Shown here one piece after another: positions 9,933 through 59,459 of a stretch of DNA of 64,000 nt (positions are counted from its first letter, which is position 1; every line of letters starts with the position of its first letter). The notes beneath the pieces are model-generated. The model saw only the letters and a program-made list of their open reading frames with translations. It did not search any database and was not told the origin of the DNA. Made by a program: the position numbers and the translations under genes. This DNA comes from Podarcis vaucheri (taxonomy: Eukaryota): the NCBI GenBank assembly GCA_965113315.1, contig OZ220372.1. One strand, written 5' to 3'.

Positions 9933-11363
9933 TAGAACTCTTGAGCAGATGCTTGGAAACTGTTTTGGAATTCTTAAGGGTTAACTAACTAGAACCTGAT
10001 CTGGACAAGATTGAAGCATTGTGGGTCAGAATGTTGTCTGTTCAAGATGGAGTTGCATTCTCTCTCAAAAATTAAGTAGTACAAAAAGTACCTGTAGTAT
10101 CACAGGTGTTGGTGGTGACTAGGAGCATCGTATATAAGTTTCTGATGGACTGATTCTCCAGCTATAACCCTAACTAGTCTCCAGAGATTTTATTGCAGCA
10201 ATCCATGCCTGGAAAATATATCCAGACTGGTCTACTACAATGTACTCTACATGGAAGATGGTTTGATAGCTTAATTTAGTGCAGTGGCTAAGGGGCCAAA
10301 CTCTTTGACTATATTACACTTATTTGCACTGGTCCTAGAATCATAGAGTTGGAGGGGAGCTATCAACACCCTCTCCGTATCTATTATTGTAGGACTGTGA
10401 AGACATAACTTTCAGTGTGACTGCATATCTAGAGCAGTTCTTGAGCACTCCTGAAATCATCTCTAGCTCCAGGTATTTTAGTCCCTTGTGCCAGTGTAAG
10501 CAAACGTCAACAATGCCTCTCAAATCTTTGCCAAACAGCAGAGCGTCACAGCAGCTTAATCAAAGAGAGAATGTCCTCTCTGCAATGGAATTTACAAAAG
10601 GGCAATGTTACAAAATGCAAAGTGACCTCGGAAATATCAAATTCGCTTGGCTCCAGAGCCTCATGCCACAGAGATATCATTCGAACTGACAGTTTTTAAA
10701 TGTTTGACCTGATCTGTCACATTGCTACATGTAGCATCAGTTTGCAGAGATGTGGCTTTATCCCTTCAGACATTGGAGGATGTGGTAGCGGCAAGCTCTG
10801 TAATACATCTGTAGGTACTTAGCTCATGGTATTTAAAGAGCGTCTCTGAGCAGAGATGCCATTACTTTATGCGGGATGAGAATCAAATTTGGCATTCCTT
10901 TGCTGTGGATAAAGAGATGAGATCCAGGGCTCAGCTTCCAGGAACTAACTCCGTTAGAGAGGATAAACAAACCCAGCTTGCTGTCGCTGCCCCCCCCCCC
11001 CCGCATTCATCTCTCCCACTTTTAGCCTGGAAGAGTGTAGCAGAAATTGACTAGATTGTTAAGACTTCTCACCCTAACCGATCATTTCATTCTAAAGCTC
11101 TGCACTTGAATGCAGGTCTTTTTGTTTATGTTTTAAATGCAAATAGCTGCTGCCAGGTGATTGAAATTGATCGAAATACTTTGTCACTTGTACAACTTGT
11201 ATACAGTGAAATTACATGAGCAACCCCCACTCAGTTCTCTTAGTCTAAATTCCCCTCGTTTACTGACACACACTCACCAAACCCGAAAGTCAGTTGCCCT
11301 GTTGTTATCTTTTCATTCAGCAGCCTAACAGCCCACGGATAGAAGCTGTTCTTTACCCTGTTA

Positions 11364-11540
11364 CAGATAGGTAGCCGTGTTGGTCTGCCATAGTCAAAAT
11401 AAAAAAAATCCTTCCAGTAGCACCTTAAAGACCAACTAGGTTAGTTCTTGGTATGAGCTTTCGTGTGCATGCACACTTCTTCAGATACACATATCTTCAG
11501 ATACACATATTGGTGAGCTACTGGAAGGATTTTTTTTATT
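11364..11540 (-). mobile_element. Penelope-like element (pLTR fragment with short inversion)
   Basis: GGTAGCCGTGTTGGTCTG end, 12-bp TSD TTTACCCTGTTA (11352-11363 and 11541-11552). Same family as 44997-45385. Confidence 0.8.
11451..11488 (-). ncRNA. Minimal type I hammerhead ribozyme motif
   Basis: Minus strand reads GUAU-CUGAAGA-A-GUGUGC-AU-GCACAC-GAAA-GCUC-AUAC: intact core, stem I GUAU/AUAC, stem II and palindromic AGCU stem III. Confidence 0.75.
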
Positions 11541-12074
11541 TTTACCCTGTTAGTGCGACTAATCATGATTCTATATCTTCTGCCTGAGGGCAGGAGATCA
11601 AGAAAGTGCTGGCCAGGGTGTGAATCATCCCTGAGAATTTTCCTCACTCTCCTGAGGCAAAGTTCTTCCACTATTTCATCCAGCGGATTCACGGGACAGC
11701 CCATGATATCTTGTGCCGTATTCACCACGCTCTGTAGGTACTTCCTATCAGTTGATGTCAAACCAGTGTACCACACCATGATGCAGTATGAAAGGACAAT
11801 TTCTATTGTTGACCGGTAGAAGGAGATCATCAAATGTTGATTGACATGCTCTGAGGTGGGGAGGCTAAGGAACAGTGGGACCATGGAGAGGAGGAAAGGG
11901 GCAGGATGTTTAACTATTTCCTGCTATGCAGAGTCCTGAAGAAAAAAATAATCTGCCTTCCTGAAGCTCAATATTGTCTCCCCCATACAGAATATGGGTT
12001 GTTGTTGTTGTTTGGAGAGAGCAGTTTTTCAACAGGATGAAGGGCAGGGGGAAATCTCCACATTAATTGGAGAA

Positions 12075-12420
12075 TTATTATTATCAATTACTTTAATTTA
12101 TATACCGTGCTCTATCCAAGGATCATAGGGCAGCTTACAATAGAAAAACACAATAATACATAACATAGTAACAAACAAAAACACACCCCACCCATAAATT
12201 GTTTAATACACCAAAGGCTTGAGAGAAGAGGAATGTTTTTGCCTGGTGCCTAAAAATATGTAATGAAGGCGTCAGGGGAGCCTCCTTGGGGAGAGCATTT
12301 CACAACTGGGCAGCTACTGCAGAAAAGGCATGTTCTCGTGGTGCTGCTCTCCAAACCTCACATGATGAAGGGGCTGAGATGATAAGCACAGGGTCCAGGT
12401 CAGTTCATATGGCGAGAGGC
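12075..12420 (-). mobile_element. Older L2 3' fragment
   Basis: Reverse complement of the RAFS..A..LWN region (GAGAGCATTTCACAACTGGGCAGCTACTGCAGAAAAGGC) and the tail. Confidence 0.65.
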
Positions 12421-12427
12421 ATACACA

Positions 12428-12771
12428 GACCCTCCAAGTGTCCCTATTTTCCAGGGTTATCCCTGATTTAGAGAAGCTGTCCCGGTTTTAGATTCGATCC
12501 CGGAATGTCCCACTTTCTCTTATGAAGTCCCTATTTTCATTGGAGAAATGTCGGAAGGTATGGAGTTATCCGAACTCCCAAGCCATCTGAAGGTAATCCT
12601 GTATAGGAATTTAAAAAATATTTTTTACTGGTTTATTATGTTTTATATATATGTTGGAAGCTGCCCAGAGTGGCTGGGGCAAGCCAGTAAGATGTGTGGG
12701 GTATAAATAGTAAAGGTATCATTATGGAAAGGGATGTCCCTATTTTCATTGGAGAAATATTGGAGGATATG
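12428..12771. mobile_element. Composite non-autonomous DNA transposon containing an L2 3' end
   Basis: Termini resemble CATACCCTCCAA / TTGGAGGATATG. Repeated GTCCCTATTTTC motifs. Internal GGAAGCTGCCCAGAGTGGCTGGGG segment. Second copy at 44133-44335. Confidence 0.6.
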
Positions 12772-13950
12772 CATACATGCAATCAACATCATGCTTAACT
12801 CTTTCATTATCAGTGTATACATGCTTAATTTTGCATGGTAGAAATAGTGATGGGTGGAGAAATGAGTTTCAGCTCACATTTCAAAGCAAAGCTGCATGCT
12901 TTTGGGGGGAGGGCACCATCTTTTCTTTCACCTCAGGCAGCAGAATATAATGAGCCAGCCCTGTTTGTATCATGTAAGCCAGACAAATCGGGCTGCACAC
13001 AGTAACAGTCAAGAATCCAAGGCACCAAAGCAAACATCTCTCTCAAATTAAGATCTAATTACAATAACAACAGCAGTTCAATTAGCCATTCAATTAAGTA
13101 AAAATGGGAGGGGGGATCATATTAGTACATTTCACAGAATGTATCCTTTGGCTCCATTCTTAATGAGGGGACGGATTGTTCTCCCTGCCAGAAAACAAAA
13201 GCAGGAAAAGAACATAAATGGCATCCGTATTTCTCTGAACATAAAATGTGCACCTGTGTGAGAAAGGTTTATAATGCTAACAAAATACTCAATGGGGAAA
13301 TAAATGCAATCCGCTTGCAGCACCCAGCATTTTTCTTGCTTATATGGGCACAAGAGAGATCTCTCAAAAACCTTGATAATCAGATTAGCTAACCTTTCTG
13401 TATTTGGCAACCTTCCAGAAAACAAAATGAGCACATTTGTAATGCGGTCTTGGCTCACCACTCTGGCAGCAAGATATGGACTAGCAAATGGGTGTCTATA
13501 TGTTGGCTTGGATAAAGCTCAGCTGCTTTGCTCTGCAATGAGTGAGGCCTAGGAAAGATGTCTGCTTGGTAAACTCAAATGGAAAACATGCACCTTTTCT
13601 TTCAACATTTACTAGGCTTCAACCAAAGTGCTGGGTTTTCATCTATAAGGTCCTGCACAGCTCAGGACCCAAATACCTTTTGGAGTGCCTCTTCTGATAG
13701 TAGCCTCCAATTATAGCTAGTCAAATGCTCTTGGGAAGCCCAGAAGGAGAGTAAGAGAGCTTGTCAGGGTTAGCTCTAAGGATCTAAGGGCGCCCTGGGC
13801 CCTGGCAGCAGTAGTAGGACCAGCTTCCTACAACTAGCGGCAATGTAACATAACAGGTTGAGCTGCTATTTTACTCACAGTGTGGAAAATGGGCCAGGGC
13901 AGGGATTAGTCTTGACAGAGTTCTGGATCCTGGTAGCAGCCACCAAAAGA

Positions 13951-14473
13951 TGTCAGATGTGGACACCACTCCTGAGTGCCATCACTTTGCACAACCACAG
14001 GTGAAGCAGCCCCTCAGCTGTAGCAAAATTAATGTTTGAGGCTGAAGGACATCTCCACGCAGCGGTGAGAAAACAAAGGGTGTTTATTGCTAGCAATAAT
14101 GGCTCAGTGGGATCACTCTCCAAAAGCTGAGCCAACCCAAAGAGTGGGGTCTTCTTAATATACATAACTGTTATCTATTAAAGCAATACATATGCATAAA
14201 CTTCCTCCAATCTAAAGTTACAACACAATACATTCCTTTCTACCTGAGGGGGTTAGGACATTTGAGCAGAGCACGTCTCATTGTCAAATGTAGACACTTA
14301 GGAATGTTGTTTACAACCTTGGGACTAAAGCTGCTCCTAGCACAAGATAAGGCACTACAAAGAAACAATAGACACAAGGCCTCTAGCCTGGCTAGTTAGC
14401 TGAGCTTATAGGTCTCTATGTTCATCACAACCTTGGAGTGAATCTCTCATACACGCAACTCAAAATGCCCACA
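13951..14473 (-). mobile_element. Probable solo LTR (ERV/Gypsy-like)
   Basis: TG...CA boundaries with minus-strand polyA (TTTATT near 14083) and TATA-like (near 14157) signals in LTR order. No clear TSD. Confidence 0.35.
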
Positions 14474-15289
14474 ACTTGCTCTCTGTGAATAGGATGGCAA
14501 ATGGATCAGGACATTTTATTTAGCCCCATCACAAAGAAAGCCCCAGGTTTATGATTTGCTTGAGAGATTCCAAGTCTGATCATGTCATAGGCTGAGGGTT
14601 TCTAGGGTACAAACTAGAAGATCTCCCACGAGAGAGTTCGGCATGTGCTTAATTCATTCCCTCCAGAATCAATGGGACCTAAAAGTCTTGAACTTTGACT
14701 GGACTATGTCCAAAGTATTCGCCTCTCTTTCTGAGCCCGGGCCTTCAAGGCTTTCCTACTTAGATCTCAAAACAACTTGAAGCTGCAGCTTTGAACTCAG
14801 CTATCCAGGAATGCTCTTCTTAACCCAATTGAAATTCAACGTTTTCAGAAGCACCCTTTAATTCCTTGCTACCACACTTGTTTATTGAAAGCAGGGGGGG
14901 GGGTGGACTCCACACAGAGAAAACACTTGAAAGGAATATGAAAACATTTCAGCGTTTTGCTTTAAGTGTAAATTATTTCCACACCAATTCAATTTATGCT
15001 GCAGAATGAGGTAGAGAAAGACATTTCAACCATTCCCCTCCACCTTATCAGATGAAAGTCGGTATCTGAATGATGGTTTCCTTCATTCTTTATTGCAGGA
15101 TATGTCTTCTGGTTTTTGATTTCTACAGTGTTATTCAAAGGCCCTGGCTGGGTCAGTAGTTGACACAGTGAAACTGCCTCAATTTGAGTCCAGGACTTTC
15201 AGTTCTTAACAGCAAAATCTTATGCCTCTGAAATGGGTGGGGGGAGAGAGAGAGAACTGCTGAGTGATATTCAAGCCTGGGAAAATTAA

Positions 15290-44335: not shown

Positions 44336-45086
44336 CCTGCATTTGGGAACCTGGTGGAGGAAAGGAATTAGGCTCAAGGAATCAGCGACATGTATCATTT
44401 CTGCTTCTTTACTTTTGGGGATGGAAAAAAAATCGGAGCAGCACAAATGCTCACTTCCTTGAAACGAGTTACAAAAATTCCTGGCAACTGTATTTACAGC
44501 TTCATCTGTCACAATAGTTAGACCACAGTTGCCTAGGCATTAAAGTGATGCAATGAGCTATCAAATCACTTTAAGAAGGATTCACAACATCACTGCCAGT
44601 CAGATCATACTTTACTTGCCCAGACAAAGTTCACCGTTGTTTTTAATATGACACGCTACAGCCCAAATCTATGCATGTCTGTGATACAGTGTTCAGTAGG
44701 CCTTAATCTCTATTCAATTAACTGTATTTGTCTACAATCACACTATGCATTTAAAGCACGATGATACCACTTTAAACTGTCATCGCTTCCCCCAAATAAT
44801 TATGGGATCTGCAGTTTGTTAAGGGTGCTGGGAGTTGTTAGGAAGTCCCTTTCTCTTCACAGAGCTGCATTTTTCAGAAAATCAATCCTGCTTCTTGGAA
44901 GCGAAGCTGTGTGAAGGGTACACAGCTCTCCTAACAACTCCCAGCACTCTTAACAAACTATAGTTCCTAGGATTTTAATAATCAATGGTTTATATAGTAG
45001 ATAGGTAGCCGTGTTGGTCTGCCATAGTCAAAATAAAAAAAAATTCCTTCCAGTAGCACCTTAAATACCAACTAAGTTACTTCTTG

Positions 45087-45124
45087 GTATGAGCTTTCGT
45101 GTGCATGCACACTTCTTCAGATAC
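45087..45124 (-). ncRNA. Minimal hammerhead ribozyme motif (intact core)
   Basis: Identical to the motif at 11451-11488. Confidence 0.75.
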
Positions 45125-45288
45125 ACTGAAACAGAAGTTGCCAGATCCTTCTATATAGTGAGAAGGTGGGGATCTCCCATTCCCACCTATCTCCCATTCT
45201 GCCTATCTCCCATCCCCACCACCCTTCTGAGTAACACCCCTCCCCACCTTCTCACTATATAGAAGGATCTGGCAACTTCTGTTTCAGT

Positions 45289-45326
45289 GTATCTGAAGAA
45301 GTGTGCATGCACACAAAAGCTCATAC
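45289..45326 (+). ncRNA. Minimal hammerhead motif with mutated core (GAAA to AAAA)
   Basis: GTATCTGAAGAAGTGTGCATGCACACAAAAGCTCATAC. The G12 equivalent is lost at a CpG. Confidence 0.6.
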
Positions 45327-47021
45327 CAAGAACTAACTTAGTTGGTCTTTAAGGTGCTACTGGAAGGAATTTTTTTTTATTTTGACAATGGTTTATATAT
45401 TTATTGTATCTATAGTTGTGAATGCATCTGATAGTGATTTATCTTTATATTCTCAAGTTTCTTTTCTCTCCCTACCCCATATTATGTCTTAAAGCCAACC
45501 TGCAGCTGATGGAAGTTGTAGTACAAAACATTTGAAGGGCACCAGGTTGGTGGATGCTGGCCTACACAGTAGGTAAATGATGCAGGATTCATACAGTCAT
45601 GTAAACAGGGGCCTTTTCTTCTGTTAGAGGGGAAACAACTGCCATTCCTCAGTTCAGTTTCCTTGTGTGGAGCACAGATACACAGCTACCAGTGCAGAAA
45701 TGCCTAGGGAAATACCGCTGACAGATACTCAGGGAAGTTGGGCTTAGACAAAGAGCCCGCAATAATTCCTTCAGTTCCCTTTGGGAAAACACTTCCACCC
45801 TTTTTGACAGAAAGCGAGCGGAAGAAAAATAGGTGACATTTCCTCTCAGAGTCGTCTGGAAAGAGTCCTAAAGTATAGCCAATTGCACTTCTTCATACAC
45901 CATGGTGTGCTGTCAGACAGCAGCATGAGGAGAAAATGATGAGTTCTGCTGTTTGATCAATCAGTGAGAAATTAAGTTGGCCTACCTTTACCTAAGTGAC
46001 ATGGCTGCTCCTGGCTGCTAGTGACAGTTATTAGATACTTTATTGATGTGAAGTTCGGTAGCCCTATTGGACCGCAACTCTACCAAAGGAAAAGAAAGCA
46101 AACTTACTTAATAGAAAATCTCCTCAGTGTCAGCTGGATAGCTGGGTGTGATACTCATTTTATTTGTTTTTCTTACATTTGTATATCCCACCTTCTTTTT
46201 GTCATGGAACCCAACTGCAGTGGCAACCAATTCTATGGCCAACTCAAAGTGCTGATTTTGACCTATAAAGCCTTATGGAGCTCAGGACCACAATGACTAT
46301 ATGTGTGGTTTCTCAGTTTCCAGTCTTACTTCCAAGGAAGTATGCACAGAATTGCAACCCTCCACTTTTCATCATCATGAACCTATTTTGTCATTAAGAA
46401 CATCTTCTGCGGCCTCTCTCCATGTTCTCTCATCCAGCAATTGCCTCAAGCAACAGGGGCAGCAAATTTAGGTGCCTCCCCAGATCTCCTACTTGCTTGC
46501 CCCACTGGCCCATTCACCCATCCAGCTGCCAACCAGGCTCTCATCTCATATATAGTATTCAAGAGCCACCCTCTGCCCTCCTCCTCTCCACTGTGCCATT
46601 TCTTCCCCATCTGCACATCTCTTGTGGGTGAGATGCAGAGTTCAGTGGTTATCTTCCTATTGAGGCAGCCAAGGGTGTCTGTGAGGGGTCCTTCCTATCA
46701 TCATACAAATCATCTCACCAGTGGTCTGCCTCTGAGCTTATCCAGACACCCATGGAGCCATTTGATATCAGGACACACAGGCGGCCAGGGAGGGTGCAGA
46801 GTGGCGGAGAAGTGTTTACTGGAAAAGTAAAAAAATGCACATCACCCTTGACCACTTGAGAAGGCAAGCTCAAAACCCTGCTGCATGCACAGAAATTCTA
46901 AAGAAATTCTTAAAATGCCCTGAGACTCAGGCAGAAAAATGAAAGCCCCTTCCTCAGGGAGGAAGACCTTTAAGAAATCAGAGGACCGGTTGTTTTTCTG
47001 AGAATTTAGAGCACATATTTG

Positions 47022-53988: not shown

Positions 53989-54124
53989 CAGGCATTGGCA
54001 AACTCGGCCCTCCAGATGTTTTGGGACTACAACTCCCATCATCCCTGATCACTGGTCCTGTTAGCTAGGGATGATGGGAGTTGTAGTCCCAAAACATCTG
54101 AAGGGTCGAGTTTGCCTATGCCTG
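53989..54124. mobile_element. hAT MITE, 136 bp, near-palindromic
   Basis: TIRs CAGGCAT.GGCAAACTCG / CGAGTTTGCCTATGCCTG, perfect 8-bp TSD CTGTATAG. Confidence 0.92.
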
Positions 54125-55182: not shown

Positions 55183-55232
<50 letters not shown>

Positions 55233-55545
55233 CTGCCCATCTGGCTAGGCTTCCCCAGCCACTCTGGGAGGCTTCCAACAAAATATTAAAATACAGTAAT
55301 GCATCAAACATTAAAAGCTTCCCTAAACAGGGCTGCCTTCAGATGCCTTCTAAAAGTCTGGTAGTTGTTGTTCTCTTTGACATCTGGTGGGAGGGCGTTT
55401 CACAGGGCAGGTGTCACTACCAAGAAGGCCCTCTGCCTGGTTCTCTGTAACTTGGCTTCTTGCTCTGAGGGAACCGCCAGAAGGCCCTCGGCACTGGACA
55501 TCAGTGTCCAGGTAGAACAATGGGGGTGGAGATGCTCCTTCAGAT
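55183..55545 (-). mobile_element. L2 3' fragment with (ATT)n tail
   Basis: Reverse complement of 59135-59450-type sequence. Confidence 0.9.
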
Positions 55546-56353: not shown

Positions 56354-56405
<52 letters not shown>

Positions 56406-56408
<3 letters not shown>

Positions 56409-56722
56409 TTTCGTAGATTTTCACGGGTACAGGAATGCAGGTTTTGGTGTCTTCGGGTGTCTTCCCGTGTAAGAGTCGGGGTGTCTGTGCGACGTTTCGA
56501 CGAGGTCTCACTCGTCATCTTCAGGCTGGTGCTTTCGGCTTCTTGTTACTGGAACAGAGCTCTGTTCCAGTAACAAGAAGCCGAAAGCACCAGCCTGAAG
56601 ATGACGAGTGAGACCTCGTCGAAACGTCGCACAGACACCCCGACTCTTACACGGGAAGACACCCGAAGACACCAAAACCTGCATATATATATATATATAT
56701 ATTTGCTTTCGTAGATTTTCAC

Positions 56723-56724
<2 letters not shown>
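56406..56724. mobile_element. Penelope-like pLTR fold-back: perfect 250-bp palindrome (56435-56684) plus duplicated terminus
   Basis: Arms checked base by base, centre between 56559 and 56560. Carries a hammerhead core. TGCTTTCGTAGATTTTCACGGG occurs at 56406 and again near 56704. Confidence 0.75.
56593..56630 (+). ncRNA. Minimal hammerhead ribozyme motif (mirror copy at 56489-56526 on the - strand)
   Basis: GC-CUGAAGA-U-GACGAG-UGAGAC-CUCGUC-GAAA-CGUC-GC: core intact, 6-bp stem II, palindromic ACGU stem III, GUC cleavage triplet. Stem I is weak. Confidence 0.7.
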
Positions 56725-56763
<39 letters not shown>

Positions 56764-58305: not shown

Positions 58306-59459
58306 GGGGGCACAGTCATACAGTGGTTCCGCTCCTTCCTCCTGGGCCGTGTTCAGAAAGTGGTAGTGGGAGATGAGTTTTCAGACCCCTGGGCTCTCAC
58401 TTGTGGGGTGCCTCAGGGTTCTGTCCTCTCCCCCATGCTTTTCAACATCTACATGCAGCCGCTAGGAGAAATCATCAGGAGGTTTCGGCTGGATGTTCAT
58501 CAGTATGCGGATGATACCCAGCTCTACCTCTCTTTCAAATCATAACCAGTGAAGGTGCTGAAGGTCCTGTGAGTGTCTGGAGGCAGTTGGAAGATGGATG
58601 GCAGCTAACAGATTGAGGTTGAGGTTGAGATTGAGGTTGAGGTTGAATCCTGGCAAGACAAAATTACTGTTTTCGGAGGACAGGAGGCGGGCAGGTGTGG
58701 AGGACTCCCTGGTCCTGAATGGGGTAACTGTGCCCCTGAAGGACCAGGTGCACAGCCTGCAAGTCATTTTGGACTCAAAGCTATCCATGGAGGCACAGGT
58801 CAATTCTGTGTCCAGGGCAGCTGTTTACCAGCTCCATCTGGTACGTAGGCTGAGACCCTATCTGCCCGCGGACTGTCTCGCCAGAGTGGTGCATACTCTA
58901 GTTATCTCTCGCTTGGACTACTGCAATGCGCTCTTTGTGGGGTTACCTTTGAAGGTGATCTGGAAACTACAACTAATCCAGAATGCAGTAGCTAGACTGG
59001 TGACTGGGAGCGGCCACCAAGACCACATAACACTGGCCTTGAAAGACCTACATTGACTCCCAGTACGTTTCCGAGCCCAATTCAAAGTGTTTGTGCTAAC
59101 CTTTAAAGCTCTAAACAGCCTCGGTTTAGTATACCTGAATGAGTGTCTCCACCCCCATCGTCCTGCCCGGACACTGAGGTCCAGTGCCGAGGGCCTTCTG
59201 GCGGTTCCCTCACTGAGAGAAGCCAAGTTTCAGAGAACCAGGCAGAGTGCCTTCTCGGTAGTGGCACCCGTCCTGTGGAACACCTTCCCACCAGATGTCA
59301 AAGAGATAAATAACTACCTGACATTCAGAAGACATCTGAAGGCAGCCCTGTTTAGGGAAGCTTTTAATGTTTAACAGACTATTGTATTTTAATATTTTGT
59401 TGGAAGCCGCCCAGAGTGGCTGGGGAAACCCAGCCAGATGGGCGGGGTACAAATAATAA

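Follow-up and report, generated by a model that had tools for sequence, protein, structure and literature searches.

A spacer-less palindrome in (TA)n of Podarcis vaucheri as a probable recent insertion of a truncated Penelope/Poseidon-type retrotransposon

Endonuclease-positive (EN+) Penelope-like elements (PLEs) leave a characteristic product, in which a 5'-truncated copy stands beside an inverted copy and a tail of 30-40 bp extends one side. This is presented as their hallmark in the available sections of Craig et al. 2021 (PMC8557442) and Arkhipova et al. 2013 (PMC3846280). In the accessible part of PMC8969392, inverted pLTRs and short 3' extensions are likewise routine PLE features, and the sections of PMC3846280 at hand interpret palindromes at inverted junctions as self-priming and report small RNAs from Penelope copies. 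The text available of Cervera and de la Pena 2014 (PMC4209133) describes minimal PLE hammerhead ribozymes and notes opposite-strand hammerhead pairs 100-700 bp apart. As far as the published PLE work was accessible, it treats as unresolved how inverted pLTRs arise, why microsatellites are favoured and what the hammerhead does.

For the mechanism, the relevant system is PAc (Poseidon_Ac) of Anolis carolinensis. According to the portions available of Frangieh et al. 2024 (PMC11167929), its ORF starts at stem II of the ribozyme, cleavage by the ribozyme falls 26 nt past the start codon, and reverse transcription begins 111-118 nt into the ORF. PAc cleaves and extends both strands in vitro, and the tail sits between two reverse transcriptase (RT) start sites. 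The same portions state that the PAc hammerhead cut only with the protein, that no RNA reads ended at the cut, and that cleavage was not needed in vitro.

Here we describe an insert in a 64,000-nt stretch of Podarcis vaucheri DNA (contig OZ220372.1; hereafter the window). Judged from sequence comparison, it is with roughly 95% probability the heavily 5'-truncated product of a recent insertion, into (TA)n, by an endonuclease-positive Penelope/Poseidon-type retrotransposon. The architecture is already published and the element is ordinary for its class. Compared with other EN+ PLE insertions, both copies are stumps, which leaves no internal body and makes the entire insert a 250-bp palindrome, and there is an extra stub made of tail only. 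We did not find the family or GC-centred joints described in the literature consulted; Dfam or Repbase may already hold the family.

The two arms (56435-56559, minus strand; 56560-56684, plus strand), 125 bp each, are fully complementary (100%) and meet without any spacer (0 nt). If pure two-letter runs are excluded, no other perfect spacer-less palindrome in the window has arms of at least 9 nt. The left arm is the 5'-truncated end of a pLTR with the minus strand as sense, and the upstream sequence of the family differs from 56559 on. Family contigs align from this position in runs X1, X2, X3 and X5, and in X1, X2 and X3 the family runs on upstream of it, so that here truncation and an adjacent inverted copy occur together. 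The right arm is that inverted copy, which has no tail and reaches +82 to +84 relative to the ATG; the AT at its end (56683-56684) is common to the arm and the adjoining TA tract. The head-to-head junction (56559-56560) falls on a GC, a 2-nt self-complementary overlap that could come from either copy. Each arm contains nine CpG (observed/expected 1.04, against 0.25 for the window). Both the exact symmetry and the CpG richness had been claimed in an earlier note on this DNA, and both hold. A blastn search within the window recovered no copy of the palindrome family besides the two arms and the stub.

Other inverted repeats occur nearby. One at 54000-54113 has 47-bp arms and a 20-nt spacer and gives a sub-cutoff mir-5408 score; it is probably a short palindromic DNA-transposon derivative. 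A pair of 325-nt inverted repeats (55219-55543 and 59135-59459, 88% complementary) lies beside (ATT)n tracts and probably represents the 3' ends of LINEs in opposite orientation, to either side of the palindromic insert.

The window has just three TA tracts of at least 8 units, and all of them adjoin the insert. The (TA)25 tract (56357-56406) would be the target and presumed primer of the left copy, the (TA)10 tract (56683-56702) separates the right arm from the stub, and the (TA)18 tract (56726-56762) forms the right boundary. Because both flanks are (TA)n, no target-site duplication (TSD) can be read. The insert is asymmetric, which the earlier note missed, because the minus-strand tail at 56407-56434 adds 28 3' bases to the left copy and the right copy has none. 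The tail ends at +112 from the ATG and lies at the low edge of the published range, its length being 28 nt, or 30 if the shared AT of the arm end is included, or 32 with the two extra bases of the stub. In other family copies, too, contigs pass beyond the arm and into tail sequence, as at the X1 loose end behind 56663. The stub (56703-56725, minus strand) comprises 21 nt of the 3' part of the tail and 2 nt more, ending at +114. Positions 56705-56725 equal 56407-56427 exactly over 21 nt, or 22 if one shared T is counted, and this is the 22-nt terminal repeat reported before. It has the orientation of the left copy, not of the right one. Since it carries the 3' sequence of the tail plus two bases in that orientation, we regard it as a separate, very short copy and not as the tail of the right copy.

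The insert encodes the first 37 codons of an RT-endonuclease ORF (56408-56518, minus strand), open to the tail end. Its ATG (56518) lies inside the hammerhead core, and the pLTR thus overlaps the ORF start together with the hammerhead. The protein match, not the openness of the frame, carries this assignment, because 26% of shuffled sequences were also stop-free and the stop-free frame is weak by itself. A phmmer search with the 37 residues against 1.84 billion proteins returned two matches. P0003 matches residues 1-37 of the element over its own residues 1-37 (68%, E 6.2e-4); the second, P0002, was dismissed as a tandem-repeat protein. P0003 leads to a rattlesnake ORF (P0004, E 8.5e-64), and P0004 to 398 longer proteins of 661-2000 aa (E up to 1e-10). 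RVT_1 was detected in all four P0004 relatives that were scanned, and GIY-YIG below cutoff in two of the four. A single ORF with RT and GIY-YIG is thus reached through a homology chain from P0001 via P0003 and P0004 to full-length RT proteins, the locus itself holding only 37 codons, which makes the initial step of the chain a short one. A word-indexed protein search with a 46-aa query found no match, and an Atlas search with the 37-aa query no usable match. The second Penelope-like family proposed in the earlier note is therefore supported, being tied by protein homology to an RT/GIY-YIG ORF.

An ADKG motif was found in 109 of the 120 P0004 relatives listed (of 398), and the CX2-5CxxC linker in none of the 85 listed relatives with a recognisable endonuclease start, including P0022 and P0018. 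With a C-terminal endonuclease, DKG and no linker in its relatives, the family would be placed with Penelope/Poseidon. Neptune membership was considered for the (TA)n context and rejected, given the zinc-finger linker in 0 of these 85 relatives. The (TA)n association as such is shared with Naiads, for which it is reported, and with Neptune, for which it is proposed. In contrast to Naiads, which lack hammerheads, the relatives have DKG instead of DKA and a C-terminal endonuclease.

The comparison with PAc is close in layout. The N-terminus of the Anolis protein P0018 corresponds by eye, one residue apart, to the translation of the PAc template in the part of PMC11167929 that was available, and this PAc protein is among the P0004 matches. 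The two elements have homologous ORF N-termini and AT-rich targets; in both, the ATG lies where stem II begins, and the core end GAAACGUC is common to them. The cut falls at +28 here and at +26 in PAc, and the insertion ends at +112 (left copy) and +114 (stub) compare with the PAc RT start at +111-118. The RENLR of the element aligns with HESLR of PAc, just before the RT start and insertion end. They are nonetheless different families, with a divergent N-terminal peptide, a different stem II and a shorter stem I here. The closest proteins of the element are P0003 and rattlesnake P0004, and via P0004 the wall-lizard ORF P0022 (82% identical to P0004 over 137 aa), not PAc. Whereas PAc prefers an ATT motif, the present family often lies against (TA)n.

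Each strand carries CUGAAGA-U, a 6-bp stem II with a 6-nt loop, and GAAA-CGUC, starting at 56595 (plus) and 56524 (minus). We identify these as minimal type-I hammerheads at 56489-56526 (minus, left copy) and 56593-56630 (plus, right copy, predicted cut after 56628), with a 2-bp stem I and a loop-less palindromic ACGU stem III. Read against the sections of PMC4209133 at hand, the sequence has the core nucleotides, the G10.1-C11.1 pair and the palindromic stem III of the minimal type. The motifs described there share the conserved core, the extra nucleotide before stem II, the G-C closing pair and a palindromic 15.2-16.2 without loop 3, and are of a dimer-dependent type. The 2-bp stem I of the predicted ribozyme is as in D. 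virilis, whereas the Schistosoma motifs in those sections have 4-5 bp. Rfam (E up to 1) gave no hammerhead match in the palindrome, probably because the loop of stem III is missing, and the ribozyme call therefore rests on the motif and on published features of minimal hammerheads. Rfam miRNA matches across the palindrome were rejected as well; their scores are below gathering and reflect the hairpin only. The family also differs, as proposed earlier, from the hammerhead family at about 11.4 kb and 45.1 kb (11451 and 45087), to which blastn found no similarity.

There is indeed one hammerhead on each strand, but the 'back-to-back' arrangement of the earlier note is a trivial outcome of the palindrome, and any transcript would hold only one sense copy. 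Predicted transcripts of either strand fold at -274 and -271 kcal/mol, with the arms paired over their full length but for a 4-nt turn, in line with the earlier claim of a hairpin that buries the ribozyme. On these folding models the hairpin would certainly form if the locus were transcribed; a supply of siRNAs from it, as proposed in the earlier note, would be hypothetical. The hammerheads would have been carried along with the pLTR, and cleavage by them at this locus is improbable. Single-arm folds were no stabler than shuffles (z -1.14 to +0.25, six folds), with stem II as the only stable part, and we therefore claim no further conserved structure.

To compare other family copies, four of 24 public runs, from three samples, were examined over 56535-56735. 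Positions 56675-56735 were skipped as repeat, a section that includes the proximal arm end and the stub junctions. The runs yielded 513, 1343, 176 and 634 contigs, of which 416, 940, 136 and 287 were at least 99% alike. The summed depth over the arm, 0.4-1.8 million, is not a copy number, and it indicates a very abundant family. The family is young in all four runs, which agrees with the recent activity claimed before. At 56631 most of the depth in one sample has the window allele A (C makes up 19% and 29%), whereas A is nearly absent (about 0-1%) in two others (C 100% and 99%), one of which carries the same organism label. This split points to a lineage-specific recent expansion, with 56631 as a sub-family marker.

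Loose ends of family contigs (24 shown of 114) comprise three that continue into normal upstream sequence before 56559, five TA-joined 5' ends, four inverted joints, one that enters the tail and nine with other flanks (six at 5' ends); two presumably are sequencing adapter. The bias towards (TA)n, which bears out the targeting of the earlier note in part, is therefore strong but not exclusive: among the 5' junctions shown that lead to non-family DNA, five of 11 are TA and six have other sequence. The four inverted rows fit spacer-less head-to-head joints centred at 56593/94, 56629/30 (two rows) and 56632/33, with 0, 0, 2 and 2 mismatches, the second fit being of 7 letters only. The junction centre thus varies between copies. 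The exact 56559/56560 junction is absent among the 32 pieces listed of 2686, none of which spans the stretch. Three records of X1 do pass over the centre, with 6-7 gaps or 8 mismatches, but their length falls short of the 31-letter bridging rule. Depth left of the centre is about 12,000-14,600 in X1 and 35-2,115 in X2, from the same sample. We also observed an X2 contig in which family sequence ends exactly at 56628, and an X3 contig (family 56599-56565) with a rearranged joint of family sequence and a short TA run, which suggests repeated priming within one insertion.

Two further hammerhead-bearing insertions in the window belong to an unrelated PLE family. At 44983-45399, a tailed copy on the minus strand is followed by an inverted tail-less copy after a 68-nt spacer. 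The inverted arms (45022-45172 and 45241-45391) are 151 bp long and 97% alike, and a 14-bp TSD lies at 44983 and 45386. One hammerhead of this insertion has AAAA in place of GAAA. At 11352-11552, a tailed copy is accompanied by a 29-bp inverted arm (11517-11545) and a 12-bp TSD. This second insertion has a short internal duplication on the 5' side of the ribozyme, and it interrupts an RT-like reading frame (11441-11923, minus strand) that, in our judgement, resembles a LINE fragment. Both insertions carry a 30-34-nt tail at their left side alone, and their tail-less ends, placed on the family sequence, agree to within about 4 nt. All three hammerhead-bearing insertions found in the window thus have one layout, a tailed copy with an inverted tail-less copy.

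How the insert arose is less firmly established. The reading we favour, at somewhat better than even odds, is that two target-primed cDNAs, one per strand and start site, were joined through the 2-nt GC. The GIY-YIG endonuclease would nick both strands inside the TA tract. The 3' end of the top strand would prime cDNA at the distal RT start (the tail end, +112), and that of the bottom strand a second cDNA at the proximal start (+82 to +84), with a 2-nt AT match. If both cDNAs stopped at about the same base and were joined through the self-complementary GC, a spacer-less palindrome with a one-sided tail would result, with the target duplication hidden in (TA)n. The stub of 21-23 nt could be left by one more, aborted priming on the TA tract to the right, whether during this event or afterwards. 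We infer the order of priming, the joining step and the timing of the stub. Two primers are preferred because they account together for the presence of a tail on one side, for the tail-less end that recurs in the other family and for what PAc does biochemically. Against them stands that cDNAs made independently would be expected to differ often in length, as those of the 45-kb copy with its 68-nt spacer do, whereas the present insert is symmetric to the base.

That symmetry is accounted for equally well by self-priming, the model of the earlier note and of Arkhipova et al. 2013, in which one cDNA or antisense template turns back, copies itself, stops at the tail boundary and joins TA. The arms are 100% identical and both carry the same sub-family allele at 56631, which fits such fold-back synthesis, and palindromes at inverted junctions are read in this way in the sections of PMC3846280 available. 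Fold-back normally needs a loop, however, which is left as a spacer, and the self-complementarity at the centre amounts to 2 nt. The mirror stop at the tail boundary, recurrent in two other insertions, is also unexplained by it, and in vitro PAc starts at two sites and extends both strands (PMC11167929, portions available). Fold-back synthesis is therefore not established; the missing tail is better explained by two primers, and we consider self-priming a serious but clearly less probable origin.

Quite improbable, in our estimate, is a palindromic non-autonomous (MITE-like) element copied as a ready-made 250-bp unit. One X1 record (record 3) does cross the centre region at depth 484, and the X1 depth left of the centre would allow some nearby joints to be multi-copy. 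But the centre-crossing X1 records carry the gaps and mismatches given above and do not satisfy the bridging rule, further joints are centred at 56593, 56629 and 56632, most of the depth continues into normal upstream family sequence, and X2 reaches only 35-2,115 in the same sample.

Palindromes and TA runs are known trouble spots, and the exact junction is absent among the pieces listed, both of which would suit a fold-back artefact of assembly or library. We find an artefact harder still to credit, because the mirror image breaks off precisely at the tail boundary, which is biologically defined, the flanks are unmirrored, and two older insertions with TSDs in the window have the same layout. 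Least plausible of all is a later rearrangement or gene conversion that made or homogenised the second arm, as perfect arm identity might reflect, since the family is young anyway (X1, 416 of 513 contigs at least 99% alike) and the layout is a published PLE product.

Returning to the joining of two target-primed cDNAs, the joints may be non-random. Spacer-less joints might form where both cDNAs end on self-complementary GC, with a hot spot at 56629/56630, the first base after the hammerhead cut; we regard this as speculative and rather unlikely. Three of the four distinct joint centres fall on GC, which makes up 6 of the 125 dinucleotides of the arm, and two of the four inverted rows are centred at the predicted cut site, but the pattern was noticed post hoc in tiny numbers, both cut-site rows come from one sample, one of them consists of 7 letters of blurred consensus, and there is no depth step at the cut. 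The centre of the palindrome lies elsewhere, at 56559/56560, and library fold-backs could yield such contigs. The PAc results in PMC11167929 likewise speak against the idea, since RNA reads ending at the cut were not found and cleavage was dispensable in vitro. If true, ribozyme-cleaved RNA would be the in vivo template and would leave a genomic footprint, making the role of PLE hammerheads traceable.

As a single locus the insert has small weight, being a textbook Penelope-like insertion cut down to its ends. Its value lies in marking an abundant, very young family and in providing material for testing the origin of mirror-image insertions. With near-identical copies, variable centres, two sub-family alleles and fixed start sites, a genome-wide count could decide between two primers and self-priming. 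A (TA)n bias in a family of Poseidon type would, moreover, mean that such a bias does not require the zinc-finger linker of Neptune and Naiad.
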